A DNA stretch of 64,000 nucleotides from a virus (IMGVR_UViG_3300020161_001040:6467-70466); one strand, 5' to 3'; positions 50,566 to 63,981 are shown, counted from the stretch's first letter. Notes: generated from the sequence alone by a model not told the origin. Program-made: numbers and translations.

Positions 50566-53500
50566 TCACTGGTTGAACATTCCGCCGCTTCTCATTTGGC
50601 GGCGAGTTTCATCTGCGTACATGGCCCTAAACTGATCAGCAACCGCCTTAGCCACTTGATTACCAAGATCAGCATTCTGCTCAGAAGTACCAGAACTACC
50701 AGCCACATTAACAGTGACGTTGACGGTGATGGCAGGACCGCCCTGGGATTCCATCATAGCAGAAGGCGTACCCCTGCTAGAAGAGGCTATTTCCTGCGGA
50801 GTGTTACCCATCCAATCCTGCAACATCGAGCGCCCGTCGAGAACCACGGTCCCGGCGTTAATCATCAAGCTGCTGGTCGTAAGTTGGGACCCGATGGGAG
50901 ATTCCATCGGAGAGCCTCTGAACGTATCGCTCATTGCTTCAACGCCGAGTCTGCCATTCGGTAGTCTACGCAGCGGCATGATTGCCTCTGGTCCCGCTTC
51001 CCCCATTAAACCATACCCGTTCCTCATAGGGAATAAGGTAGGCTGGGTTACTAGACCACCCGTCGCGTAGGGGGTGACTCGCCCACCACTAAACACGCCG
51101 CCCATAGCATATTTTTTCTCACCGCCCGCCATAGGCGCACCACCGGAAAATACTCCGCCATCTCCGAATGTCATTCCCATAGATTCAAGGATTAGCTTAA
51201 AGCCCATCATAAAGACTTTCTTTATGATGATCTCTTCGATCACCTTAGCTAAGAAGTCCGTGATAAAGGACCTAGCCATTTCCTTGAACGAACCCTTGCC
51301 GGTGGTCAGCAACTCAGCAAAGTGGCGCGAAGTGATTCTAGCGAAGCCAGACATGGCTTCACCGGCCAGACCAATTTCCGTGGAGAGATTAACAAACGAC
51401 TCTTTCATATTGAGCGCTTGGCCTAGTTGATCATAAGCGATTTCAAGTTCCCCAACTTGGGTTCTGGCTCCATCCAATAACTCGTTGTGTCTAATGATGG
51501 CCTCATCAGTAGAGGAAATCTCCGACCTCAACCTCTCCGCTTCGCTACCTGACCCCCGATTGGTGTCCTCCAACCCAGTTAGTTGGGTACGGCGCGCTTC
51601 ATTTTCCGCAGAGAATTGGTTTACTCTGCGAGTACCGTCGTTTATGAAATTGTTGATTGACCCAACGCGCTCGTCACGTTCATTGTTATTTTGGGTTCTA
51701 TCTCTGCGAATCCCAGACAAAGCATTAATGCGCTCAGCCTCACGATCAAATCCAAATGTTCTCAGCAGATCACTCTCGTTAGAGATCTGGGAAGTTTCTA
51801 CTCTGTTGTTTAACTCCCTCATTCTCCTATTACGAGGGTTGTTCGGGTTATTAGACATGCTATCAAAACCGGAATTAGCGGCATCTAATCTAGCCTGCCT
51901 TACTCCGATCTGTGTTCTGAGAGCGGCAGCCTGAACGCCTCCACCCTGGCCGGAAGCCTCTAGGCGAGCTAAGCCACTGCCTAAATCATTCACAGCCTGC
52001 CTATAACGATTGATTTCGTCTATGAAAGCGGACAGCGATTTCAGATCCTCGTCTACTCCAGTTAGACCAGCGGCACGGGAAGCACTTTCCAGGGCGGAGT
52101 CTCTGCGGTCTATTCTACGGATCGCGTTGGCCATCAACTCCAGGTTTACAATCTGCTTGCGCTGAGACTCACTTAGATTTTCTCCGCCCACTAATACGCT
52201 TTCGTAATATTCTTCGGCAGCTTGAGTGGAGTTAGTCCAACCAGTAACGGTGCGCTGGAGACGGGCGATCATGTTATTGAAAGAGTTGGCGGCACCATCA
52301 GTAGCACCAGTGGCGTTTCTAATCGCACCATCTCTAATCTGCTGGGTGGAAGCATTGACCTCAGCAATGATTTGTTCATTACTTAGATCTTTTCTGGTAA
52401 TTCTAAGGAACCTATCGGCTTGCCAGCGAAACGCTTTTTCTTGGCTCGCTCCGCCTTTACCTTTGCTGGTCGATAACGCTTTTTCAAATTCTTTCCGAGC
52501 TTCCTCCAATCTCGACTGTTGCTGTAACTGGCTCCGTTCGGCATCGGTCACTGGTCTGGCAGTTAGACCGGCCCTTGACTGAGCTAGCAAAGCAGAAGCC
52601 GGGCCAGCGGTTCCTGCAGTGGCGAGTGCCGACAGTCCGTTTCTGATGACTCCGTTCACCTCGCTGGTAAATTTAGCGCCAGAAAAACTACTTAGTAAGC
52701 TTTGTAGATCGCTAAGAGCAGAGAACGCTCTACCCGTCATACCGGCTACACCACGGAGGCTGGAAGTGATGCCGTCATTCTGGAGAATATGCTGGGCAGC
52801 AGCCTCGCCCGCCATCTTGCGAGCTTCGGCCATCAGTTTTTCCAAGCTCTCAACTTGTCTGACAACAGGAGCGCCTTGCAGCAGAGCTTCTGCCTTCCTC
52901 TCTTCGAGTCTCACATTAGAGGCTAAAGCGATATTTTGAGTCTCTAATTCTTGGGTGCGCTGCGTAGTTAGATCATCTCTATACTTACCTATTCCGCGAT
53001 TCATAACACTAAGTCCACGCTGTTGCGCGAACTGGGCAACATCGCGATCAATACCTTCTGGAACGGCTGCGATAGTCGTGCGTTTTCTGACGTCATCGAT
53101 GGCGCGAGAAACTTCAAGATCTTTTTGTTTGGCACTAGTTACCCCAGCCAAAGCTTTAGCTAATTCTCCGTTATCACGGATTCCATTTTGACGAAGTAAT
53201 TTCTCGGCATCTAGCTGGGCATTCATTTGATCAACCGCCTCAGTGCCGAGACGATAAGCGGACGCTAATCTTTCAGTATCTCTAATTTCTTGATCAGCGT
53301 TGCTTAGAGCGGTAACATACGGCTGCATTCTTCTGGAGTATCGTTCTAGATTGGACGCCTTTTCAGCTTCAATCATGGCTTTAGTAGCGGCTTCAAGTGT
53401 ATCCTGAGAACCAGGACTTTCCGAATCAACATTGCGATTACCGATTACATCTTTAAAAGCTTTCATTCCAGCCTCTGACGCAGCGTTTTTATCTGCTAGA

Positions 53501-56500
53501 TTTAGGATCTGGGCCGGATCTCCAGTCAGGGACGTTATAGACGTCTCGACGGATCTACGAGATGCTTGCTGCGACGTTCTGGCTCGTTCTTCTAGAGCTA
53601 GAGTTTCGTTTTTAATATATTCGGCTCTTTGATTTTCGATAAGGAAAGATATAATCCGAAGCTCTCCCTCTCTCTTAATTAAGTCGTTCAACTTCTTTTG
53701 AGCGTCTTCACGGTCTTGGGTGGCTCTAGTTATATCTTCCTGACTACCGCTCTGGTTAACTAGGTCATTTTGGTTTTGATCAGCAGTGATTAAGGCTCCT
53801 CTGGCGTATTCAACGGCTCTTCTAGCGGAGTCTAACAACCCAAGCTGAACCTGATCTCCAATGATTCTAAAATCTAGGCCGAGACTTCTGCGGATTTCGG
53901 AAAGCTCATACAGCTTACGAGATAACTCATCAAGTCCTTCCGTAGCAAACTTGCGAGTCTCCTTATTAGCGTTTTCAATAGCATCTCTATAATCGAAATT
54001 CACGACATTGGCCGCATCTGCAGCTTGCTTAGCTAATGCACCGGTTCTGTCGGCTAGTTGTTGACTGGTAGTACCTGCATCTCTTTCAGCATTCACTTGC
54101 GCGATTAAATCACGACTTTCTGTTTGGTCAACTATGTTAAATCTTCTGGCTTCCTTGATAGCAGAAATTCTAGAGTCTCTGAGATTATTTCTTCTTTGTT
54201 GTTCTACAAGAGCAGCCTTTTTGGTTTCTGCCTCAACCCCATTCTGAGTTTCCTTATTCAGGGTAGCCTGGGCCTGGGCAACGTCTAAAATGATATCCCT
54301 ATTTCTCAACAGCAACAGAGCCATATCACTGTAAGCGTCAGGATTGGCTCTTGAATTCTCTGCGTTCTTTAGTCTTTCAAGTAACACAAAATACTCTTGC
54401 ATCTGGGGCATCAATTCCCTAATGCGAGCTTCTGGTACCCCTGTACGGCGAACCATGCCCCCTATCTGTCGGTTATCTAGATTCGTTTGATTTACAAGGC
54501 TGAGAGAAGAAGCGGCGGATTCTCCGTGTTTAGCACGAATTTCGGAAAGAATTTGTTGGCGTCTGGCTGCCGCATTTAACATCTGGTCCATGCTTACGTC
54601 AGTGCCTCTTAAGGCCCGAGTCATTTCATCTCGTAAATTTCTCCCGGTATCTACAGTTCCGCCAAGTACGCCCGACACGCCTCCGGATTCCACTCTGGTA
54701 GTGGTTCCAAGATATTGATTCACTGCCTGTCTGGCAGTGTCGGCAGCCTTAGCGGAGTCCTGTAGCTGCTTATTGATGTCGTTGATGGCGTTAGTCATAT
54801 TCATTGAAGTGTAGTTGCCTTGGAGCAACCGTTCGTTGGCTTGCCTTAAAGCGTCTATCCGTCCAGTAGCGGCGTCCAAATCTTTCTGAACTTGGGTAGT
54901 ACGATCTTTAGTTAAAATATACCAAGCAGCGAATGCGGTCCCTGCGGCTGCTATCCACCCCACAACGGGAACACCAGCCAGGAACATGGCGGCGCGACCT
55001 AAAAGACCTATACCGGCGGCTGCCTTGGCTGCAGCTAGTGAAATCATAGTGGCTCCAGCTGCCTGAGTAGTCATCACTACAGCTAGACCGGCCAGAGCTA
55101 TAGCCGCGCCTTCACTTTGAAGCTTAAATTGATTGGCCGGATCAGTAACCCTCTGGTACACAGTACCAGCATTATTGATCTCGTCAGTTACTCTAGACAT
55201 TTCCTCTCGTAGCTGCATCAGTTCTTGGCGAACCTGATCCAATTGTCTTCTAGGAATTTCAGCCCTTAGGGCATTACGAGTGCCTCGCATATTCTCGTTG
55301 AAGGATGGGGTAGCATTATTAACTTGATTATTCAGAGAAGCTTCGGATCTCTCTAACTGCTTGCGTCTATCTTCCAATCTATTTAAACGAATTTCCATCT
55401 CGTTTAATGGACGATTGGCTGCTCCAGAGATGGAAGCTGACCCCGTATTGGGATCAAGTGCTGCTTTCATGGTCATAATCGACGCCGACGCTTTGTCAGC
55501 CGATGTAGAAATGCCCATGAAGTATTCGGGAATACCAGCTAATATGCCCGATAATAACACTGCAGCTATAGTTCCACCGCGTAGAGCCATCGCTACGCCG
55601 GTCAACAGAGCGGCTACACCAGACATAGCCAGAAGAGCGCCAAAAGCTAAGACGAGTCTGGATACTAGCTCAACATTTCTTTCAATAACCCCGGCGAACT
55701 TGTCGAATCCTTTAACAAAATCATTGATAAGTTCTCTGATGGGGCCACCGTTCATCACGGATTCAAGGGTATCAATGATTCTCTTGAACCCACTCTCTAG
55801 ACCAATCTTGAACAAATCCTGAGAGAATACAGTGAAAGTATTCTTAAGTCTGTTAAATTCAGCTAGGATTTTATTAGACATCAAGGCAGCAGCGTCAGCC
55901 ATATCGGTGCGCATTAATCTAGCGACTACGGGCAGTACCTGACTGGCCGTTACTTCGCCAGCCTTCATAGCTTCTTCGAACTGTTGCATCCGTTCGGTAG
56001 TGATTCTGGTAGTCTCATCGATTTCACCGCGAGCGATGAAGAAGGCTCTGGCGAATGTATTGGCGACACCGGGAAGTCTATCGCCTAATTGCTGCCTTAA
56101 TTCTTCCGCCATTACCTTGCCCTTGTTCATCATCTGCTCAAAGGCTCTGATGATGCCACGGGTGTTCTCAGAATCCATACCGAGAGCCTGAGAAGCGACG
56201 ATGGTGGACTCAAAGATGCTACGAAGCTGGTCCTGGCTATAACCCATAGCTTGGGCAGCGGCAGCCAATCTAGCGTAAGGCTGAACTAGGTCACCATACG
56301 AGACACCAAGCTGATCGGCGGTTGTCTTCAGATACTCCATTTCACGATTAGCGCCTTGGATTGTCGGGAAAGTCGCCCTTAGGGCAGCTTCCATTCTATC
56401 CATGGCGATTGAGGTCTGAGTGACAGCCGTGACTATAGTTACAAATCCGGTAGCGTACAACACAGCTTGCAGAGTATCGAGAGAATCGATCACTCTACTC

Positions 56501-59500
56501 ATGCTTCTAGCTTGCTCTAGGAACGCCCTGCTATTATTCTTCTGAGCCTCAAGGAACGAAGCCTTCCTTTGCTCAGTCTTGGCTATCTCGGTCTGTAAGC
56601 TCAGTAAGAGATTTTGTTGAGTAACAATAGACTGATTAACTCTATCGATTTGATCTTTGTACTTATCATCTAGAACTCCAATACCTCCTTCAGATCGGTC
56701 TTTAGCAATGTTCTGAATTTCTTTAAGCTTAGTCTTCTGTAGTTCAATACTGTCAGCTACTACGGAAGAAACATCTTTGAGCTTAGATAGGGAAGACTCA
56801 TAGGAATCGATGCTTTGCTTGGTTGATGCGAACTCAGTACGAACCTGAGCCATCACCAATTTAGCCGTGGAGGAAACGTCTCTTAATCCAGAGTTGATCT
56901 GACGAAATTGATCCGCTCCTATAATGTTGAACATTGAAGCTTGCTGGGGCTGACGGCTTCCCATAGACGTGATAGTCTTGTTGATAGACTCAAGTTGAGT
57001 CTCAGCCTTGTCTAGGGTCCCAAGGGCTGAGGTGAAGGACCGCTCGACACGAGAATCAGCAGCATCACCAAAGGCTCTTCTATACTCCACCCACCCGTCT
57101 CTGAATTTGCCGATTGCCTCAGAATAAGCGTCTCTGAACGAATTAAGGCGACCAATATGGTCAGCCGTTGGCATAGCCGTACCAATTTCTTTGTTAACTT
57201 CACGAATAGCCGAGCGCAGTTCGTAATAACTACGAATTATAGCATCAGCGCTGGGGGGCAGAGCGCCGCCGCCCGAACCATCAGCGTCTGGAGGAGTGGG
57301 GGGAAGACCGCCACCGCCACCGGTTCCTCCACCGCCGCCACCGATTCCTCTGCCACCGCCACCGCCACCGCCACCGCCATTGACCAAGCGATCTGATTGT
57401 TTGATCAGAGAAGAAATTTGGGACAGAGCCCCTCTCATACGATTAGCTGATTCTTTAGTGCTCTTTCCGAGAGAATCGCCCTTTTGCTCTACATATTCCA
57501 AATTGCGACCTAAAGCTTCGGCCATGGGGCCGTAAGCCGCTGCTACGAACTGTTTGAAATCTTCTAATTTTCTACGAGTATTTTCGGTAACTGTTCCAGT
57601 TAAATTTAACTCGGCCTTAATCTCAGTAGCTAGTGTTTTAGAAGCATTAGCGATTTTCTGAAAAATGCCAAACTTCGCGTCCTCAGTCACAACGGCACCA
57701 GTGGATTGCGTGAGACGCTCAATTAGTCCGGCGCGAAGTTTCTGAATGGATGATATATCTGAATTAGGCAGCAAGCTGTTGAGATCGGTAGCAATGGAGC
57801 GGATACGATCATCCCGTGTAGCAGTGCCGACCTGACTTAATTTCGTATAGAACTCCATCGCGGGCTTGAATACATTTATGGCCGTCTGAGTATCTCGAAT
57901 GGCCCGGTCGACTAGAGCCACCATCCCTTGGTCAGCTTTTTGATCATTAGCTAACAATTCTTTGGTCTTGGATAATTTCTCAGCGTTCTGATTAAGCTGC
58001 TCAATAACTTTAGCTTGTCTTTCAGGATTTTGTAAAGCCTCATCCGCAGTCTTCCTCAAGTCGACTAAACGCTCTTGAGTGAGAGATGAATTCTTGAGTC
58101 TGGTTTCCAATTCCCCGGATAGCGTGTTGGCCTTCCCAGCTTCAGTTGTACGGTTGTTGGCGTATCGATTCATTTCCAGAATTTCCGCCCGTTCTAGCGC
58201 CTGTCTCATGCCTGGGCTTATATTGGCGCTAGCCTTAGTCTTTGCGTCGGTAAGAACTGCTATAATGTCACGAGTGGTCTTCGCCATGTTTAACATATCG
58301 GCGGCGCGAGCTTCCGAAATCTTCGCGTCCTGAGCCAGCCTCTTAACTGACTCTGCCATCAAAGCGTCGTATACCTTAGAGTTGACTCCTACGTCATAAC
58401 CGGCTTCATGGGCTAAATCAGCGTCGTATCCAACTCCATATCGCTGAGCCACGGCACCTAGTGCATTAGGAACTCCGGGATTTAGGAATCTGGCTAATTC
58501 AAGGGTATCAATGGTATTAACTTTACCGAGCATCTCATAATCTTCTTTAGAGATGCCTCGTCCCACATAGAAGCTAGCTGCCTCTTTCATTTTGCTAATA
58601 TCGAACTTGTCGATGTTATGACCAACCAGTACCAATTCTCCGGTAGCTTCCTTCATTCCCTTAATGAAATTAATAAATTTATTGATAGCCTTCATCTCAT
58701 CAAAAGTATCAGGACCACCCTGTAATACCGCTTCGCCCATCTTTTTAGCGCCGGAAGTCAAGGGGGTAGAATCGTCATCTTCCCCCATAAACTTGCGCAA
58801 GCCACCAAGAAAATCTCTAAGATCCTCGACATTGCGCTTCACGTAAACGTTCATAGACTGCGCGTCTTGACCGCCTACGACTCTCTGAGCGAATATCTGT
58901 AGTATGCGGTTAACTTGAGAACCATCGTCCCTAGGCTTGAAAGCAGTCTCGATATCAAATACGACGCGAGGACGTAAATCTCTCTGTAGTTTGTTAACAG
59001 CTGTTTGATCGACCATATTAGACGTCGATTTCCTAAAATCAGCAATATCCGTGTTCATTTTTACAATAATTTGCTCAATCCGATTCAACTCCGCACGAGC
59101 ATTGCCAAGTGCTTCCTTGCTGAATAGGGCTTTGTCCCCATCCATAAATCCTAGCTTATCCATCACATTGAGAGTGGATACGAAAGTGGCAGCAGATTTG
59201 CGGGCCGATTCGAATTTGACGGGCATAACTTCAAGATCGCGAGACATCTGAGCAAATCTAATGTCTCTGTCAGATCCGGTGAGTCCTGACAACTCCGATT
59301 TGAATTTATTTAATGTTCTGGTTGATTTCTCAGAACTACTGGCAAGAGCGGTAAACATCTTGTCGTTGTAGCCAAGTGCGGAAGTAAAATTATTTACGCT
59401 TACTTTATTATCTTTCATCAACCTAAAGAAGTCTTCAAATTCAGACGACAAACCCGCTATACTAGTCTTAGTTTGGTTAGTAGCCGTCAGAATATCTAAA

Positions 59501-59796
59501 ACTCTACCACGAAGACCAGCGCTCATGTCTTTCGATAAACTGGCGAAAGACTTCCTTTGTTCAATTTCGATCTCTTCTACTCTGCTCAGAAATCCTACTA
59601 ACTTTTCAATCTCCCTAATCTTTCCGGTGATATTACCAGCAATAGATCTGGAATAATTAGCAAGATCCTTCGTATTTTCAGTAGCCTGTCTCAGTGGTCC
59701 CTGAATTTCCTTAGCAGTATTGATTAGCTTATATACATCACCGAGATCACCGACCTTGGCGTTAATTTCAATAGTGATATCAGCGAGATCTGTCAT
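50566..59796 (-). CDS. Tape measure protein (3076 aa)
   Basis: KGKVMAEELRQQLGDRLPG tape-measure domain; YATGG..LMGEAGPEAIMPL C-terminus; lies between chaperones and M. Confidence 0.95.
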   Translation of the reverse strand: MTDLADITIEINAKVGDLGDVYKLINTAKEIQGPLRQATENTKDLANYSRSIAGNITGKIREIEKLVGFLSRVEEIEIEQRKSFASLSKDMSAGLRGRVLDILTATNQTKTSIAGLSSEFEDFFRLMKDNKVSVNNFTSALGYNDKMFTALASSSEKSTRTLNKFKSELSGLTGSDRDIRFAQMSRDLEVMPVKFESARKSAATFVSTLNVMDKLGFMDGDKALFSKEALGNARAELNRIEQIIVKMNTDIADFRKSTSNMVDQTAVNKLQRDLRPRVVFDIETAFKPRDDGSQVNRILQIFAQRVVGGQDAQSMNVYVKRNVEDLRDFLGGLRKFMGEDDDSTPLTSGAKKMGEAVLQGGPDTFDEMKAINKFINFIKGMKEATGELVLVGHNIDKFDISKMKEAASFYVGRGISKEDYEMLGKVNTIDTLELARFLNPGVPNALGAVAQRYGVGYDADLAHEAGYDVGVNSKVYDALMAESVKRLAQDAKISEARAADMLNMAKTTRDIIAVLTDAKTKASANISPGMRQALERAEILEMNRYANNRTTEAGKANTLSGELETRLKNSSLTQERLVDLRKTADEALQNPERQAKVIEQLNQNAEKLSKTKELLANDQKADQGMVALVDRAIRDTQTAINVFKPAMEFYTKLSQVGTATRDDRIRSIATDLNSLLPNSDISSIQKLRAGLIERLTQSTGAVVTEDAKFGIFQKIANASKTLATEIKAELNLTGTVTENTRRKLEDFKQFVAAAYGPMAEALGRNLEYVEQKGDSLGKSTKESANRMRGALSQISSLIKQSDRLVNGGGGGGGGGRGIGGGGGGTGGGGGLPPTPPDADGSGGGALPPSADAIIRSYYELRSAIREVNKEIGTAMPTADHIGRLNSFRDAYSEAIGKFRDGWVEYRRAFGDAADSRVERSFTSALGTLDKAETQLESINKTITSMGSRQPQQASMFNIIGADQFRQINSGLRDVSSTAKLVMAQVRTEFASTKQSIDSYESSLSKLKDVSSVVADSIELQKTKLKEIQNIAKDRSEGGIGVLDDKYKDQIDRVNQSIVTQQNLLLSLQTEIAKTEQRKASFLEAQKNNSRAFLEQARSMSRVIDSLDTLQAVLYATGFVTIVTAVTQTSIAMDRMEAALRATFPTIQGANREMEYLKTTADQLGVSYGDLVQPYARLAAAAQAMGYSQDQLRSIFESTIVASQALGMDSENTRGIIRAFEQMMNKGKVMAEELRQQLGDRLPGVANTFARAFFIARGEIDETTRITTERMQQFEEAMKAGEVTASQVLPVVARLMRTDMADAAALMSNKILAEFNRLKNTFTVFSQDLFKIGLESGFKRIIDTLESVMNGGPIRELINDFVKGFDKFAGVIERNVELVSRLVLAFGALLAMSGVAALLTGVAMALRGGTIAAVLLSGILAGIPEYFMGISTSADKASASIMTMKAALDPNTGSASISGAANRPLNEMEIRLNRLEDRRKQLERSEASLNNQVNNATPSFNENMRGTRNALRAEIPRRQLDQVRQELMQLREEMSRVTDEINNAGTVYQRVTDPANQFKLQSEGAAIALAGLAVVMTTQAAGATMISLAAAKAAAGIGLLGRAAMFLAGVPVVGWIAAAGTAFAAWYILTKDRTTQVQKDLDAATGRIDALRQANERLLQGNYTSMNMTNAINDINKQLQDSAKAADTARQAVNQYLGTTTRVESGGVSGVLGGTVDTGRNLRDEMTRALRGTDVSMDQMLNAAARRQQILSEIRAKHGESAASSLSLVNQTNLDNRQIGGMVRRTGVPEARIRELMPQMQEYFVLLERLKNAENSRANPDAYSDMALLLLRNRDIILDVAQAQATLNKETQNGVEAETKKAALVEQQRRNNLRDSRISAIKEARRFNIVDQTESRDLIAQVNAERDAGTTSQQLADRTGALAKQAADAANVVNFDYRDAIENANKETRKFATEGLDELSRKLYELSEIRRSLGLDFRIIGDQVQLGLLDSARRAVEYARGALITADQNQNDLVNQSGSQEDITRATQDREDAQKKLNDLIKREGELRIISFLIENQRAEYIKNETLALEERARTSQQASRRSVETSITSLTGDPAQILNLADKNAASEAGMKAFKDVIGNRNVDSESPGSQDTLEAATKAMIEAEKASNLERYSRRMQPYVTALSNADQEIRDTERLASAYRLGTEAVDQMNAQLDAEKLLRQNGIRDNGELAKALAGVTSAKQKDLEVSRAIDDVRKRTTIAAVPEGIDRDVAQFAQQRGLSVMNRGIGKYRDDLTTQRTQELETQNIALASNVRLEERKAEALLQGAPVVRQVESLEKLMAEARKMAGEAAAQHILQNDGITSSLRGVAGMTGRAFSALSDLQSLLSSFSGAKFTSEVNGVIRNGLSALATAGTAGPASALLAQSRAGLTARPVTDAERSQLQQQSRLEEARKEFEKALSTSKGKGGASQEKAFRWQADRFLRITRKDLSNEQIIAEVNASTQQIRDGAIRNATGATDGAANSFNNMIARLQRTVTGWTNSTQAAEEYYESVLVGGENLSESQRKQIVNLELMANAIRRIDRRDSALESASRAAGLTGVDEDLKSLSAFIDEINRYRQAVNDLGSGLARLEASGQGGGVQAAALRTQIGVRQARLDAANSGFDSMSNNPNNPRNRRMRELNNRVETSQISNESDLLRTFGFDREAERINALSGIRRDRTQNNNERDERVGSINNFINDGTRRVNQFSAENEARRTQLTGLEDTNRGSGSEAERLRSEISSTDEAIIRHNELLDGARTQVGELEIAYDQLGQALNMKESFVNLSTEIGLAGEAMSGFARITSRHFAELLTTGKGSFKEMARSFITDFLAKVIEEIIIKKVFMMGFKLILESMGMTFGDGGVFSGGAPMAGGEKKYAMGGVFSGGRVTPYATGGLVTQPTLFPMRNGYGLMGEAGPEAIMPLRRLPNGRLGVEAMSDTFRGSPMESPIGSQLTTSSLMINAGTVVLDGRSMLQDWMGNTPQEIASSSRGTPSAMMESQGGPAITVNVTVNVAGSSGTSEQNADLGNQVAKAVADQFRAMYADETRRQMRSGGMFNQ
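58350..58975 (-). other. DEDDh 3'-5' exonuclease domain embedded in tape measure protein (aa about 275-480)
   Basis: VVFDIET (D281,E283), LVGHNIDKFD (D399), IDTLELAR, AHEAGYD (H463,D468). Confidence 0.85.
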
Positions 59797-60550
59797 TTTT
59801 TGTTCGCCTCGTGATAGGCGTTTAGATAGAGGTTATCTATCGCCTTGAGGATGTCTACCTCATAAGACGATAACACAGCCCCCGCATGACGAGAATAAGA
59901 GGCAAAGTCATCGAGTGAGAACCTATTAGGTCCCCACCCGTTACTGCCTCGCCACTGGTTTAGATCGAAGAAGGTACCGATGAATCCAGCGGCCTGATCG
60001 CCTATCTCGGGTTCTCGGTCATCGTCGTTTACCCTTCTTCCCTTAGCGACAAGCTCCTGGATGAATGGGAGCTTGTCGCCGTCCTTCGAATGGAGGAGCT
60101 TAAATCTCCACTTACACCATTCGTATACTTCGTCTTCTATTCCTACTTGATAAAATTTCCAGTCTCATTGATCTCCTCATCAAGCTGCTCGCGAATCCAG
60201 GCGAGGCGAGAATCGGAAAGAATCTTCACGGCATTGGCATAGCTGCACTCAAGCATCTTGCCGTCCAGGGTGATGTTCTTCCAGGACTTAATGCAGCGAG
60301 CGATGAGTTCAATCGTCTCAGCTTCGATCTCCTCAGAGGTGATCTTACCGCGACCGCCGCGCTGCGCGAGACGACGATTCTGGACGGCGCGCTGGTGCTT
60401 CTGGTACTCGTCCGAGTACTTACCAATAATAGTAATCGTGATCTTCTCACCATCATCAGTGATGAGAGGGACGCGCTTCACGGGATGGAGAATTTCGACT
60501 TCTCTACCCTGATTGGAACCGGACGCTACGTCTAGGCTAGAAAGATCCAC
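59793..60550 (-). CDS. Tail assembly chaperone GT (programmed -1 frameshift product)
   Basis: -1 frame open for 119 codons after slip site (..FFDLNQWRGSNGWGP..YEVDILKAIDNLYL), TGA overlaps TMP ATG. Confidence 0.8.
60143..60550 (-). CDS. Tail assembly chaperone G
   Basis: ITIIGKYS, IKSWKNI..DG..LECS..NA..WIREQL; upstream of TMP. Confidence 0.85.
   Translation of the reverse strand: MDLSSLDVASGSNQGREVEILHPVKRVPLITDDGEKITITIIGKYSDEYQKHQRAVQNRRLAQRGGRGKITSEEIEAETIELIARCIKSWKNITLDGKMLECSYANAVKILSDSRLAWIREQLDEEINETGNFIK
60152..60158 (-). other. -1 ribosomal slippery heptamer A AAT TTT
   Basis: X XXY YYZ in GGA AAT TTT, three codons before the G stop. Confidence 0.8.
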
Positions 60551-60599: not shown

Positions 60600-60797
60600 C
60601 TACTGCTGCGGTGTAGGCACCGGGTACGAGCTAGAGCCCGTCTCGGTGGCCTCCGGGGGCAGCGGGAGGCCCATCGGCTGGGTATCTCTAAGGCGAGCCT
60701 GTAGGACTTCGTTCTGAGCCATCAACTGGGCGCACAGATTTAAGGCATCGTTCCTCTGGCGCTCAATAGAACGGATTAGAGCTTCTGCGTATTCCAT
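60600..60797 (-). CDS. Small coiled-coil hypothetical protein
   Basis: GAGG RBS; QRNDALN motif. Confidence 0.65.
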   Translation of the reverse strand: MEYAEALIRSIERQRNDALNLCAQLMAQNEVLQARLRDTQPMGLPLPPEATETGSSSYPVPTPQQ

Positions 60798-60860: not shown

Positions 60861-62126
60861 CTAACCAGCCGGAAGGGGAGGTCGGACCATTTGCCCCTCC
60901 ATACTTACTATAACCGCGCCCGTGAGTCTGTGCAAGGCTGCCATCATTATCCCAAGATTATACGCGAATTCATTGTGACAGGTTTGATTAAAATAGTCAC
61001 CTTTTAAATACATACACCCACCTTTACACAGTTGCACTACTGGGCAACTCATGCACTCTTCTCTGTAGGTCAGATGGGTGGAAGTGGTTAACTTAATATC
61101 GTCAAAAGCGTCTAAATGACCGATTTTGTGAGAACCTTTCGCCCCGGTGTTCTGGCAAGTCATCACGTTACCTTGCAAATCCACGGCAATGTGATCAGGT
61201 CTATCCATTCCGCACTTTTGCCAAAGTGCATTCACCGGTCTACGCTGAAATAACGAATGAATGAAATCATGGACCTTATAATCTAATCCATCTATGGTGG
61301 ATAACGGCTCGTTCGACTCCATAGAATAAAATACAGAACTAGTTAGCTCTTTCAGCTTGTCGGAACTAAACCGACCAGATCCGTTCAGTGTATCCGCGTC
61401 GTAAACATTAACCACTCCTTCGATATTGATCCTAACGGGATGATCGAATTTCTGAGCAAACCAATCGCGCAGGGCTATTAAATCGAATGAATCTGAGCTT
61501 AATACTGAGTTAATATGATGAGTATCAGATTTAGCTAGAAGTCTGCTCCAAATCTTAAGAAGGCCATGATCATCAAGTGGATCGGGACCTCTCAAGTGTT
61601 GCCCTGGGCCGTCATGACTGATTGCTATTGAGATGTTGTTTTGTTCAATGAAATCCACCACTGAATCATCAAGTAAAGATCCATTGGTGACCATTGAGAT
61701 TCTAGATTCTGGCCATATTTCTTTGATCTTCGGCACCAGGAACTTAATCTTATTTAAATACAGAAGAGGCTCGCCGCCCCACAACTCAACTCTACTGGGG
61801 GCCGCATCAAACCATTGGCTGACCTTGTTGATGAAATTCTTTGCATCTGAGATACTGGACGCAGTAGCTTGTTTAATGAAAGAAGACTGTGAGCAATAGC
61901 TGCAGCTGTAATTGCATCCCAGACCCAACTGAATCTTTAGATTCTTAACGGATCTGGATTTGGGATTAGGAGTTAGCTCAGAGGTGGGTGACGCCGCTCT
62001 AAATTCCTTGATCTTCTCGTCGGACAGGATATCGCTGCCATCAGAATTTTTCAGGGTATTCAAATGTGGATCGTACACCAGGGTAAAACTATTACCCTCT
62101 CTGGAATTCATATTCAGCTTGAACAT
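60861..62126 (-). CDS. Radical SAM/SPASM domain protein
   Basis: CNYSCSYC, ELWGGEP, MVTNG, ISHDG; SPASM cysteines KCG..TCQ..CMSC..LCKGGC..TCH. Confidence 0.93.
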   Translation of the reverse strand: MFKLNMNSREGNSFTLVYDPHLNTLKNSDGSDILSDEKIKEFRAASPTSELTPNPKSRSVKNLKIQLGLGCNYSCSYCSQSSFIKQATASSISDAKNFINKVSQWFDAAPSRVELWGGEPLLYLNKIKFLVPKIKEIWPESRISMVTNGSLLDDSVVDFIEQNNISIAISHDGPGQHLRGPDPLDDHGLLKIWSRLLAKSDTHHINSVLSSDSFDLIALRDWFAQKFDHPVRINIEGVVNVYDADTLNGSGRFSSDKLKELTSSVFYSMESNEPLSTIDGLDYKVHDFIHSLFQRRPVNALWQKCGMDRPDHIAVDLQGNVMTCQNTGAKGSHKIGHLDAFDDIKLTTSTHLTYREECMSCPVVQLCKGGCMYLKGDYFNQTCHNEFAYNLGIMMAALHRLTGAVIVSMEGQMVRPPLPAG

Positions 62127-62127
62127 T

Positions 62128-62844
62128 TCAGACCTTAGCGATCTTGATCGAGGAATAATTGCTCCAGTGTCTGAATCCTACTTTGATTTCAGCTTCATCA
62201 CCGACGCTCATGCCAAGAGGTTGAAAAGTAAAAGTCCCTTGACCATTTTCCAGCTTGACCTTTCTGGGAACGAAGCCGTTGTCAGTTTTCAGATAAACGT
62301 GACAAGAAGCGGGGCCGTCCACAGTTACAGTAAACACCCCGCCAGAATCGCTGACCGTCAGCGGACCGGATACGTCCATATCAAAATGATAGGCTTTACG
62401 ACCGCTGGTAAATTGCCTGTTGCGAATATTCACCGTCATTGAAGGATTGAAGACCGCGACCGCCTCGGGGTGAAGGTTCACAATGTAAAATGCCTCGCTA
62501 AAACTAGAATCTCCCGGTCTGATAAAGATATGCAGCCATTTGGTGCCTGCGGGCAAAAACGGAATGGCGTCCTTAAATTCCTGCTTAGTGGTGGCAGTCA
62601 TGGCATGAGCATTGTATAAGGGGGGTATGCTATTTACCGACGCCGCATTCTCTGGCAAATACGACAGAACCCATCTATCGTAGTCCCCAGCTTCGCTGTG
62701 ATTAATAAGTTGATCCCACGTGATTTGGCTAGCGATGTGGTTAGCTACCGCTGTCAAGGTCTTGGCGTCTTCACTGAATGTTATAGACACGTCGGACGGA
62801 GCGTCTAGGGCGTCTTTGTACACTAAAAAATATGAATTTCTCAC
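62128..62844 (-). CDS. Hypothetical protein with beta-rich (Ig-like) C-terminus, partner of the radical SAM enzyme
   Basis: GTGA overlap with oxygenase, 1 nt from rSAM start. Confidence 0.7.
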   Translation of the reverse strand: MRNSYFLVYKDALDAPSDVSITFSEDAKTLTAVANHIASQITWDQLINHSEAGDYDRWVLSYLPENAASVNSIPPLYNAHAMTATTKQEFKDAIPFLPAGTKWLHIFIRPGDSSFSEAFYIVNLHPEAVAVFNPSMTVNIRNRQFTSGRKAYHFDMDVSGPLTVSDSGGVFTVTVDGPASCHVYLKTDNGFVPRKVKLENGQGTFTFQPLGMSVGDEAEIKVGFRHWSNYSSIKIAKV

Positions 62845-63554
62845 ATCTGGCTCCTGATCTTCACGATGTCATCAACCGATTTATAGACCTCTCCTGAGGC
62901 TTCTCCCTCAAGGGCTCCGGTAAATCTGATATTAGATATCAACGCTCTTTTATGCGACCCTTGCTTAAACATAGGCATAGTAGAATGCGGAGCATTACCT
63001 GGGAAGATGACTAATACACCAGAGGTATTCCCTATGGGAAAAATTGGCGTCTCCCGCCTAGCGAATTGACCACTCATTAACGCCTTAGGATTGTGGAAAG
63101 TGAGTTGACCGGCCAGGGGATGGTCACCTTCTTCTACGACCACTCTAGGATAATAGGTAGCAACTAGTTGGTTACCATGGTGAGCATGATACATGCTGAA
63201 ATCTTGATGATCTTCTACATTACCCCACATGTTGATTTTAAATTGGGTATATTCGTGAGGGTCTAAATTATACGCTTCTTTAAGATATTTAATTGCCATT
63301 ATACATTTAATTTGCATCAATTCTTCAACGGCTCTGCTCTTGTAATTCAGTAAAATATTATTAGGGATGGCGTGCTTAAAGCCGGACTGATAGCGAGCCA
63401 TACTCTTTTCTGCGTAATCTTCGGCAATCTCTACTAATTCGTTGTTCCAAGAATCGGGAGCGTCGATTGGTACTCTCATAACATACGTGGGCCAAAGGGC
63501 AAGCATGTTATGATCACCAACGTTAACGTCATAATCCATTTTATGTTGCTCCAT
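62841..63554 (-). CDS. Putative 2OG-Fe(II) oxygenase (TIGR02466-like)
   Basis: LWPTYV, NMWGN, HAHHGNQLVATYY, GQLTFHNP, LVIFPG..PHS. Confidence 0.8.
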   Translation of the reverse strand: MEQHKMDYDVNVGDHNMLALWPTYVMRVPIDAPDSWNNELVEIAEDYAEKSMARYQSGFKHAIPNNILLNYKSRAVEELMQIKCIMAIKYLKEAYNLDPHEYTQFKINMWGNVEDHQDFSMYHAHHGNQLVATYYPRVVVEEGDHPLAGQLTFHNPKALMSGQFARRETPIFPIGNTSGVLVIFPGNAPHSTMPMFKQGSHKRALISNIRFTGALEGEASGEVYKSVDDIVKIRSQM

Positions 63555-63580
63555 GTTGATTGGGCAGAGACTTCATAATA

Positions 63581-63814
63581 TTACGCGGTATCCGTAGAAC
63601 AAGCACAAGCACAATTACAGGCGTTGCTCTTATGTAAAGTTACAGTATCCGTGGTATAAGAGAGAGACATTAACTTAATGGGCTGAGTACCATCTCCTGT
63701 AGTATCTACATTTACGCTCAGCACCCTCGATGGACGATTGATAATTCTAGACCACGGGATATTGCCCGAAGAATCTATGACTAAGGTACCTGAAATGTAT
63801 ACGGCCATAGACAT
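63581..63814 (-). CDS. Cys-rich small protein B (C-terminal ACNCACACSTDTA)
   Basis: ORF track plus manual check; ATG overlaps upstream TGA. Confidence 0.8.
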   Translation of the reverse strand: MSMAVYISGTLVIDSSGNIPWSRIINRPSRVLSVNVDTTGDGTQPIKLMSLSYTTDTVTLHKSNACNCACACSTDTA

Positions 63815-63981
63815 CAATCCCCTGAACTGTCAGTGGAACAGGCACAAACGCAGTTGCAATCAGTGCTTATTATGTAAGTCAAATTCCCTGTAGAGTAATT
63901 GTAAACTATATCATTAAATCTAGCCCAATCTATTTGAGCCGATAAGTTAAATACGGTGGTGCCAGATACAATAATCGTCAT
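63814..63981 (-). CDS. Cys-rich small protein A (55 aa, C-terminal DCNCVCACSTDSSGD; not in ORF track)
   Basis: Manual translation MTIIVSGTTVFNLSAQIDWARFNDIVYNYSTGNLTYIISTDCNCVCACSTDSSGD; AGGGGG RBS; paralog of B. Confidence 0.85.
   Translation of the reverse strand: MTIIVSGTTVFNLSAQIDWARFNDIVYNYSTGNLTYIISTDCNCVCACSTDSSGD

Follow-up and report, generated by a model that had tools for sequence, protein, structure and literature searches.

A radical SAM/SPASM module in phage fibre gene blocks and its predicted action on cysteine-tailed fibre-like proteins

Genes at the locus

The window analyzed here, a 64,000-nucleotide stretch of viral DNA (IMGVR_UViG_3300020161_001040:6467-70466), carries close to its end a cassette of five minus-strand genes (Table 1). 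They encode two small proteins with cysteine-rich C-terminal tails (proteins A and B), a protein resembling 2-oxoglutarate (2OG)-Fe(II) oxygenases, a 238-residue protein, and a radical S-adenosylmethionine (SAM) enzyme of the SPASM type. All five were found at the positions given by the original prediction, which had been made from the sequence of the window. The radical SAM gene recurs with cysteine-repeat genes in related loci, and the enzyme is predicted to modify the cysteine tails of their products.

Protein A ends in TDCNCVCACSTDSSGD (CNCVCACSTD), with MTIIVSGTTVFNLSAQIDWARF as its conserved N-terminus and CNCVCACSTDSSGD as its C-terminal tail, and protein B has the N-terminus MAVYISGTLVIDSSGNIPWSRI and the tail NACNCACACSTDTA (CNCACACSTD). 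The two proteins are paralogous (BLASTP E = 4e-9) and their genes overlap each other; the likely start of protein B is the ATG at 63814, which is preceded by AGGGGA and gives a product of 77 residues. Among the 622 stop-to-stop frames of at least 40 residues in the whole 64-kb window, only these two proteins contain a C-x-C-x-C run. They belong to a widespread family whose start, in a family alignment, reads roughly M-A-Y-K-V-G-x-T-T-V-I-D-x-S-G-x-V-D-W-x-R-I-x-N-K-P; this conserved N-terminus is followed by a variable middle and then by the cysteine tail. Searches of the small proteins against Pfam, PHROGs, and NCBIfam returned nothing significant, even at E <= 10. Further along the cassette, the oxygenase gene shares 4 nt (GTGA) with the gene of the 238-residue protein, which in turn lies 1 nt from the radical SAM gene.

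The window reaches the end of its viral contig, which measures 70.5 kb and is 65% complete. A contig of 133.6 kb (L006; handles of this form denote the loci compared here) encodes an identical radical SAM protein in the same gene order and supplies the remaining part of the phage. Its first part holds the terminase, portal, and capsid genes, a tail terminator, a 531-residue tail tube protein (Phage_tube_2), and four small genes; next come an 813-residue fibre-like protein, a 1505-residue fibre with a Peptidase_S74 end, and four cysteine-tailed paralogs of 74, 80, 55, and 78 residues, the third of which is protein A. The oxygenase, the 238-residue protein, the radical SAM enzyme, a 65-residue open reading frame (ORF), the tail assembly chaperone, and the 3076-residue tape measure protein make up the last part. 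Only two of the four paralogs are seen in the window because it stops at the contig end. The earlier description of two paralogous proteins ending in CNCxCACSTD was thus right about the paralogy and the ends, and its number has to be corrected to four for the full phage.

The small-protein genes directly follow the 813-residue and 1505-residue (S74) fibre genes, i.e., they lie in the fibre gene block, and fibre genes also neighbour the module in Ralstonia phage RSP15, Achromobacter phage JWF, and prophages. The idea that the cassette occupies the place of the major tail protein gene was rejected, because the 531-residue tube gene lies ~12 kb upstream of the cassette, ahead of the two large fibre genes, and the cassette is therefore not a stand-in for the major tail protein. 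Instead, it accompanies a pair of fibre genes that are inserted after the tube gene and ahead of the chaperone gene. The cassette had also been placed directly upstream of the tail chaperone gene; this neighbourhood is correct, but the 65-residue ORF intervenes. This ORF is confined to copies of this phage (4 loci), and BLASTP gave no support for likening it to JWF gp031. A nucleotide search of the region against cultured phages gave no match.

Table 1 Features of the cassette and its neighbourhood, in positions of the 64,000-nucleotide window.
Feature	Position	Strand	Basis or remark
Small fibre-like protein A, 55 residues	63814-63981	-	ORF; AGGGGG Shine-Dalgarno ahead of ATG
Cysteine run of protein A	63838-63858
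Small fibre-like protein B, 78 residues from TTG	63581-63817	-	ORF
Cysteine run of protein B	63599-63619
2OG-Fe(II) oxygenase-like protein, 237 residues	62841-63554	-	PF13759
Core partner protein, 238 residues	62128-62844	-	Homologs in related viral loci
Radical SAM/SPASM enzyme, 421 residues	60861-62126	-	PF04055, Cys motifs; predicted modifier of the Cys tails
65-residue ORF (context)	60600-60797	-	Between radical SAM gene and tail assembly chaperone gene
Tail assembly chaperone (context)	60143-60550	-	phrog_313, 2.2e-15
Tape measure protein, 3076 residues (context)	50566-59796	-	PF20155 TMP_3 on the called gene

Cysteine repeats and their carriers in related loci

All ORFs from the fetched loci were searched with profiles of the window's proteins, namely the radical SAM enzyme, the 238-residue protein, the oxygenase, and the two small proteins. 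A locus was counted when at least 3 kb of sequence was available upstream of the radical SAM gene, and the upstream zone was defined as the same strand within 4.5 kb. A same-strand CxCxC gene was present in this zone in 87 of the 107 loci, in line with the co-occurrence of CNCxC peptides and this radical SAM clade that the original prediction had proposed to survey. CxCxC runs were found in 97 of 2247 ORFs in the zone versus 44 of 11869 elsewhere (Fisher p = 3e-45, a value that overstates independence because the loci are related). The association holds in viral contigs and in bacterial genomes.

The repeats contain 3 to 12 cysteines. Of 84 distinct cases, 68 have an Asn before the first Cys, and the x positions are most often occupied by Asn (47%), followed by Ala, Asp, and Arg. 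In 70 of these 84 the repeat is found no more than 12 residues from the C-terminus. At least seven further cases have a Hint/intein-like domain (C-F-P/A-x-G-T-x-V-x-M-A-D-G) joined directly to the repeat, as in JWF gp028, where CNCSC is followed by FPAGTMVLMADG, and in L067 and L075 an S74-type self-cleaving end comes after a long (CK)n run. Because the repeat is either terminal or placed before a self-cleaving domain, the mature C-terminus would be the cysteine repeat in every architecture.

Three groups of carriers were seen: small proteins of 55-100 residues, proteins of 350-440 residues with typical tail-fibre N-termini, and collagen-like or annotated tail-fibre proteins. JWF gp028, annotated as a tail fibre, and RSP15 ORF048, annotated as a side tail fibre, are among them, as are further proteins with collagen GPP repeats or typical fibre N-termini. 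The substrates, called Cys-rich peptides in the original prediction, look like fibre modules rather than free peptides, since the same repeat ends tail-fibre and collagen-like proteins or precedes Hint/S74 self-cleaving domains. The small proteins frequently occur in sets of three tandem paralogs across the loci, and in L042, L046, L052, L063, and L034 one or two of the three have no cysteine tail. In the 470-residue fibres of the L058 type, a W-T-R-V-N-N-R-P motif is located ~83 residues ahead of the cysteine repeat, and the motif common to these fibres and the small proteins is W-x-R-V/I-x-x-K/R-P. Because these fibres share the motif of the small proteins before the repeat, the small proteins look like a detached fibre-tip module.

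Several carriers have features of their own. In JWF gp028 (L002:4727-6178) and in L004, L058, L113, L122, and L128, the last Cys of the repeat doubles as the first, nucleophilic residue of the Hint/intein-like domain. Judging from this arrangement, self-cleavage in the Hint-type fibres would pass via a thioester at the very end of the cysteine tail, which might serve for hydrolysis or for a transfer to a different group. The fibre-like proteins of L067 (116-910) and L075 (973-1680) contain more than 20 Cys-Lys pairs ahead of an S74-type chaperone end, and they lie ~6 kb upstream of a radical SAM gene of the same family and near a second radical SAM gene. Collagen-like (G-x-y) fibres adjoin the module in L009:6425-7537 and L004:2190-5245; in the former, a Lentibacter prophage locus, the fibre gene stands a few genes ahead of two 2OG oxygenase genes, and hydroxylation of collagen repeats would be an alternative job for the oxygenases.

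The radical SAM enzyme and its partner proteins

The 421-residue protein matched PF04055 at E = 3.8e-10 (40.6 bits, cutoff 29.5) and phrog_1802 at 1.5e-58. Its CX3CX2C motif is formed by C71, C75, and C78. When the seven-cysteine SPASM signature CX9-15GX4C ... CX2CX5CX3C ... C was tested, the set was complete (C305-x13-G319-x4-C324, C358x2C361x5C367x3C371, and C383); the Pfam SPASM model gave no match at E <= 0.1. The cysteines of both motifs, read directly from the sequence, are all invariant in an alignment of ten family members, so the enzyme had been correctly described as a radical SAM protein with a full SPASM cysteine set.

The best NCBIfam matches of the enzyme were all maturases of cysteine-containing peptides (nif11, PapB, CcpM, QhpD, and SCIFF, among others), and the highest scores against the respective cutoffs were 74.6/518.7, 73.4/340 (PapB), 64.7/500, 59.4/453 (QhpD), and 51.7/425 bits. 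The equivalogs tested by name were PapB NF047865, SCIFF TIGR03974, CcpM TIGR04068, nif11 TIGR04064, and QhpD TIGR03906. By these scores the enzyme is a relative of the named maturases and a member of none. The anSME model (TIGR03942) was also below its cutoff (44.3 versus 349 bits), and TIGR04115 was absent from the 25 best of 61 NCBIfam matches. Among solved structures the closest chains by sequence were 8vpo, CteB (5wgg, over query residues 52-382), and anSME (4k37). CteB, which forms a thioether, and anSME, which oxidizes a Cys, are the closest full-length solved relatives, and both act on Cys. No Pfam match to a PqqD-like recognition element for peptides that are made by the ribosome and modified after translation (RiPPs) was found in the cassette proteins.

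The enzyme family is large, with at least 2588 proteins at E <= 1e-20 and at least 567 IMG/VR stretches, and occurs mostly in phages and prophages. Full-length relatives are present in genomes of Alpha-, Beta-, and Gammaproteobacteria, including many Rhodobacterales copies that are ~50% identical; in the one Rhodobacterales locus inspected in detail, the radical SAM gene was the last gene of a prophage. Species of Thioclava, Nereida, Lentibacter, and Phaeobacter are among those that carry the module. A sub-branch of the enzyme was seen in AT-rich IMG/VR contigs (L050, L053, L054, L055, and L065) that have no CxCxC gene nearby; here it is surrounded by several small cupin- or oxygenase-like genes, followed in L050 by a 918-residue S74 fibre. 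A distant relative (28% identity) is encoded by Ralstonia jumbo phage RP12 (L172:436-8006, ORF074-ORF080) in a row of three radical SAM genes, which sits behind genes of a virion structural protein, a 125-residue His/Tyr-rich protein without a cysteine repeat (HTHNYYDYYW ... RSHTHYSPDGSY), and a 295-residue protein. This row may be a sister system that acts on other residues.

Among 89 viral loci, 65 had a homolog of the 238-residue protein, encoded almost without exception between the cysteine-repeat gene and the radical SAM gene, whereas 41 had the oxygenase. These frequencies suggest that the substrate, the 238-residue protein, and the radical SAM enzyme form the core and that the oxygenase is a tailoring option. 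Rhodobacterales prophages carry two copies of the oxygenase gene, and some loci carry a second radical SAM gene (~340 residues) instead of it.

As the original prediction had stated, the 238-residue protein is an unknown in that it has no Pfam, PHROG, or NCBIfam match; tblastn against cultured phages gave no match either, and a protein-atlas look-up returned only unnamed clusters below 0.9, with one Big_1/Invasin lead at 0.76. In an AlphaFold2 model (pLDDT, the predicted local distance difference test score, 75), the C-terminal domain (residues 153-238) was confidently predicted as an immunoglobulin (Ig)-like fold of the Big_1/intimin type, and the model matched intimin 1f02_I (VIA) with a Z of 11.0 and a root-mean-square deviation of 1.8 A over 82 residues. 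The N-terminal domain folded alone reached pLDDT 68 and a best Z of 4.4, with no recognized fold, and the full-length look-alikes of the model were only uncharacterized phage proteins. BLASTP showed no similarity of the 238-residue protein to JWF gp029 or RSP15 ORF046; its RSP15 counterpart, as identified by profile search and by a probable fold match, is ORF047. The gene position is suggestive: the gene directly precedes the radical SAM gene and in most related loci directly follows the substrate gene, and the site right after a fibre gene is the usual place of phage fibre assembly chaperones or tip adhesins.

The 237-residue protein matched PF13759 (2OG-FeII_Oxy_5) above the gathering cutoff (29 versus 27 bits) and phrog_81 at 1.8e-18, and it keeps the metal-binding histidines H123-x-H125 and H190, the last of which is invariant in 69 relatives; its naming as an Fe/2OG oxygenase is thereby supported. 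Its activity is uncertain, because an Asp conserved in 90% of the 69 relatives is replaced by Gln129, and the copy of this phage may have an altered or lost activity. A sequence search of the oxygenase against solved structures gave no match, and BLASTP gave no similarity to RSP15 ORF047.

The conservation of the partner raises the possibility that the enzymes act on the 238-residue protein, on the large fibres, or on a small molecule, and that the cysteine-tailed proteins are unmodified structural neighbours. The 238-residue protein is as conserved a neighbour as the cysteine proteins, and some related loci have no CxCxC gene. However, no Cys is conserved in the family of the 238-residue protein, which has hardly any invariant residues, and the co-occurrence is specific to cysteine-repeat genes across very different carriers. 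We therefore consider another substrate to be quite improbable.

Outside the module, the tape measure protein holds a long Gly run GGGGGGGGRGIGGGGGGTGGGGG and, at residues ~270-470, a segment that looks like a DnaQ/DEDDh 3'-5' exonuclease (FDIETAF ... GHNIDKFD ... HEAGYD).

Predicted trimers and modification of the cysteine tail

A homotrimer of the 78-residue protein was predicted with an ipSAE interface score of 0.60, compared with 0.00 for the best control. The interface consists of residues 3-29 plus C69, C71, and C73, and these three cysteines touch across the chains; the partner pLDDT did not fall below 56, and 58% or more of the contacts were shared between runs. In the calibration of this complex score, the mark was reached by 20 of 30 proteins solved as one-chain pairs and by 1 of 23 solved as single chains, counts that apply only roughly here. 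The model supports, but does not prove, that the 78-residue protein forms a trimer in which the cysteines of three chains are close together.

The trimer bears on the possibility that the system is a true RiPP, in which the conserved N-terminus serves as a leader and the cysteine tail as a core that, once modified and cleaved off, is set free at lysis as an effector such as a metal binder, signal, or antimicrobial. The layout of the small proteins is leader-like plus core-like, the radical SAM enzyme is nearest to RiPP maturases, and the genes are tightly coupled. On the other hand, the trimer model passed its controls, large fibre and collagen-like proteins end in the same type of tail or have it ahead of their self-cleaving domains, and the module always lies among fibre genes. 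The genes called from the fibre genes to the chaperone gene include no protease or exporter, and none is among the five family profiles searched across the loci, a search that did not scan for other recurrent families. Some paralogs keep the conserved N-terminus without any cysteine core. A released peptide product thus appears unlikely to us. What stands of the earlier proposal of a RiPP-style modification of late, possibly virion, proteins is its general idea, in view of the maturase kinship and the upstream repeats of the survey; the oxygenase is only an accessory, and a modified peptide effector is the less likely branch.

The convergence of the cysteines of three chains on the axis of the trimer model also fits a second possibility, that the repeat is a metal- or iron-sulfur-binding tip while the radical SAM enzyme carries out another reaction, such as Cys-to-formylglycine conversion as in anSME, or epimerization. 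Such a tip would have an analogue in the long tail fibre of T4 with its His-x-His iron sites, anSME is among the closest solved relatives of the enzyme, and variable x residues suit a role in which only Cys matters. The anSME motif C/S-x-P/A-x-R is, however, absent from every cysteine tail examined, metal binding does not call for the strong bias towards Asn ahead of and between the cysteines, and a dedicated SPASM enzyme is not known as a requirement for simple metal sites. A metal tip seems to us an improbable explanation of the module.

We favour the interpretation that the radical SAM enzyme acts on fibre-like virion proteins by modifying their (N-C)n tail, most likely through thioether cross-links, with the Ig-domain protein as a holder or tip partner and the oxygenase as an optional hydroxylase, and we put its probability at roughly 55%. 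The small proteins would be stand-alone versions of a C-terminal tip module, and their conserved N-terminal stretch would hold three chains together. The enzyme would then, as expected from its family, abstract a hydrogen atom and modify the cysteine tail; the most likely product is a thioether from Cys sulfur to a carbon of a neighbouring Asn, Asp, or other residue, within or between chains. From its gene position, the probable role of the 238-residue protein is to hold the tail, to present it, or to remain on the tip. The oxygenase may add an optional oxidation, e.g., hydroxylation of Asn or Asp. The outcome would be a fibre tip, produced in the reducing cytoplasm, that is chemically hardened and non-reducible. 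In a more specific form of this model, the radical SAM enzyme and the Ig-domain partner weld the Asn-Cys tails of three fibre chains by thioethers in phages of many lineages, and Hint or S74 cleavage, in carriers that have it, first exposes the tail; we offer this form tentatively and regard it as rather doubtful.

Several observations weigh against modification of the tails by the enzyme. About one-fifth of the related loci (20/107) have no CxCxC gene in the zone; in some loci only C-x-C is present, and in some AT-rich contigs nothing of the kind, although several of the 20 carry shorter repeats (the RSP15 fibre ends in NCQCGN, and others end in CACGDC or CDCANC). Different residues (N, A, D, R, K, V) stand between the cysteines, so that no fixed acceptor residue is evident. 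The enzyme scores far below every curated NCBIfam cutoff, so that its reaction cannot be transferred from a named family. When the 80-residue paralog was searched against cultured phages with tblastn, no match was found. The cysteines of the trimer model face the axis, which suits metal binding equally well, and the Cys-less paralogs alone are no proof of a structural role because the Cys-less paralog of the Crp system may be a helper.

QhpD/QhpC and CrpC/CrpA are known systems in which SPASM enzymes install thioethers in proteins (PMC13692751). CrpC of Methanococcus voltae installs ranthionine thioethers in a protein rather than in a short peptide (Dieter et al. 2026, PMC13692751), and the paralog CrpB, which shares the N-terminus of the substrate and is devoid of Cys, may act as a helper (PMC13692751). 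As in the module described here, a SPASM radical SAM gene adjoins the gene of a Cys-rich protein with C-terminal cysteines, accompanied by a paralog that shares the substrate's N-terminus. In contrast, the Crp system is archaeal and cellular, its Cys motifs are CPLVL and ACAGM, and it has no Ig-domain partner, fibre context, or Hint or S74 fusions. In quinohemoprotein amine dehydrogenase, QhpD forms Cys to Asp/Glu carbon cross-links in the small subunit QhpC, which stays in a larger assembly. TIGR03906 matched our enzyme at E = 2.5e-16, with 59 bits against a cutoff of 453, but the substrate, cofactor context, and gene neighbours differ.

The ranthipeptide and sactipeptide maturases CteB (5WGG/5WHY) and PapB (NF047865, E = 1.8e-20) share the radical SAM-plus-SPASM architecture and modify Cys-rich C-terminal cores; their substrates, SCIFF and freyrasin, are short and secreted and have other Cys spacings, their curated cutoffs are not reached, and the N-terminal extension of the phage enzyme is only ~58 residues. 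The CXXX-repeat radical SAM systems (TIGR04115/TIGR04114) place a Cys at every fourth residue instead of every second and use another radical SAM family. Caruso and colleagues reportedly described in 2019 a Cys-to-Asn beta-thioether in NxxC peptides, with NxxcA and NxxcB. Because N-x-x-C units overlap within N-C-N-C, there is chemical precedent for a Cys-Asn thioether; the NxxC system, likened here by description only, differs from the module in that it concerns a streptococcal, quorum-regulated peptide. Relative to known radical SAM/SPASM maturation of Cys-rich substrates, the substrate class, the partner protein, and the biological setting are new, and no description of the module was found in the searched papers.

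Covalent chemistry in phage particles is familiar from capsids, such as the isopeptide chainmail of HK97, and we know of no such chemistry in phage fibres. The module is readily testable, as it comprises three or four small genes and has cultured carriers in JWF, RSP15, and Rhodobacterales prophages, and the hundreds of natural substrate/enzyme pairs with a very simple repeat, (N-C)n, are convenient for enzymology. In the more specific form of the model, the thioethers welding three chains would be the first class of enzyme-installed covalent cross-links in phage host-recognition structures, giving a covalently locked, reduction-proof receptor-binding tip. If enzymatic modification of fibre tips is indeed widespread, radical SAM RiPP chemistry extends to large structural proteins, and host recognition and particle stability gain a further, hidden level that could matter for heterologous fibre expression, phage engineering, and the prediction of host range from sequence.

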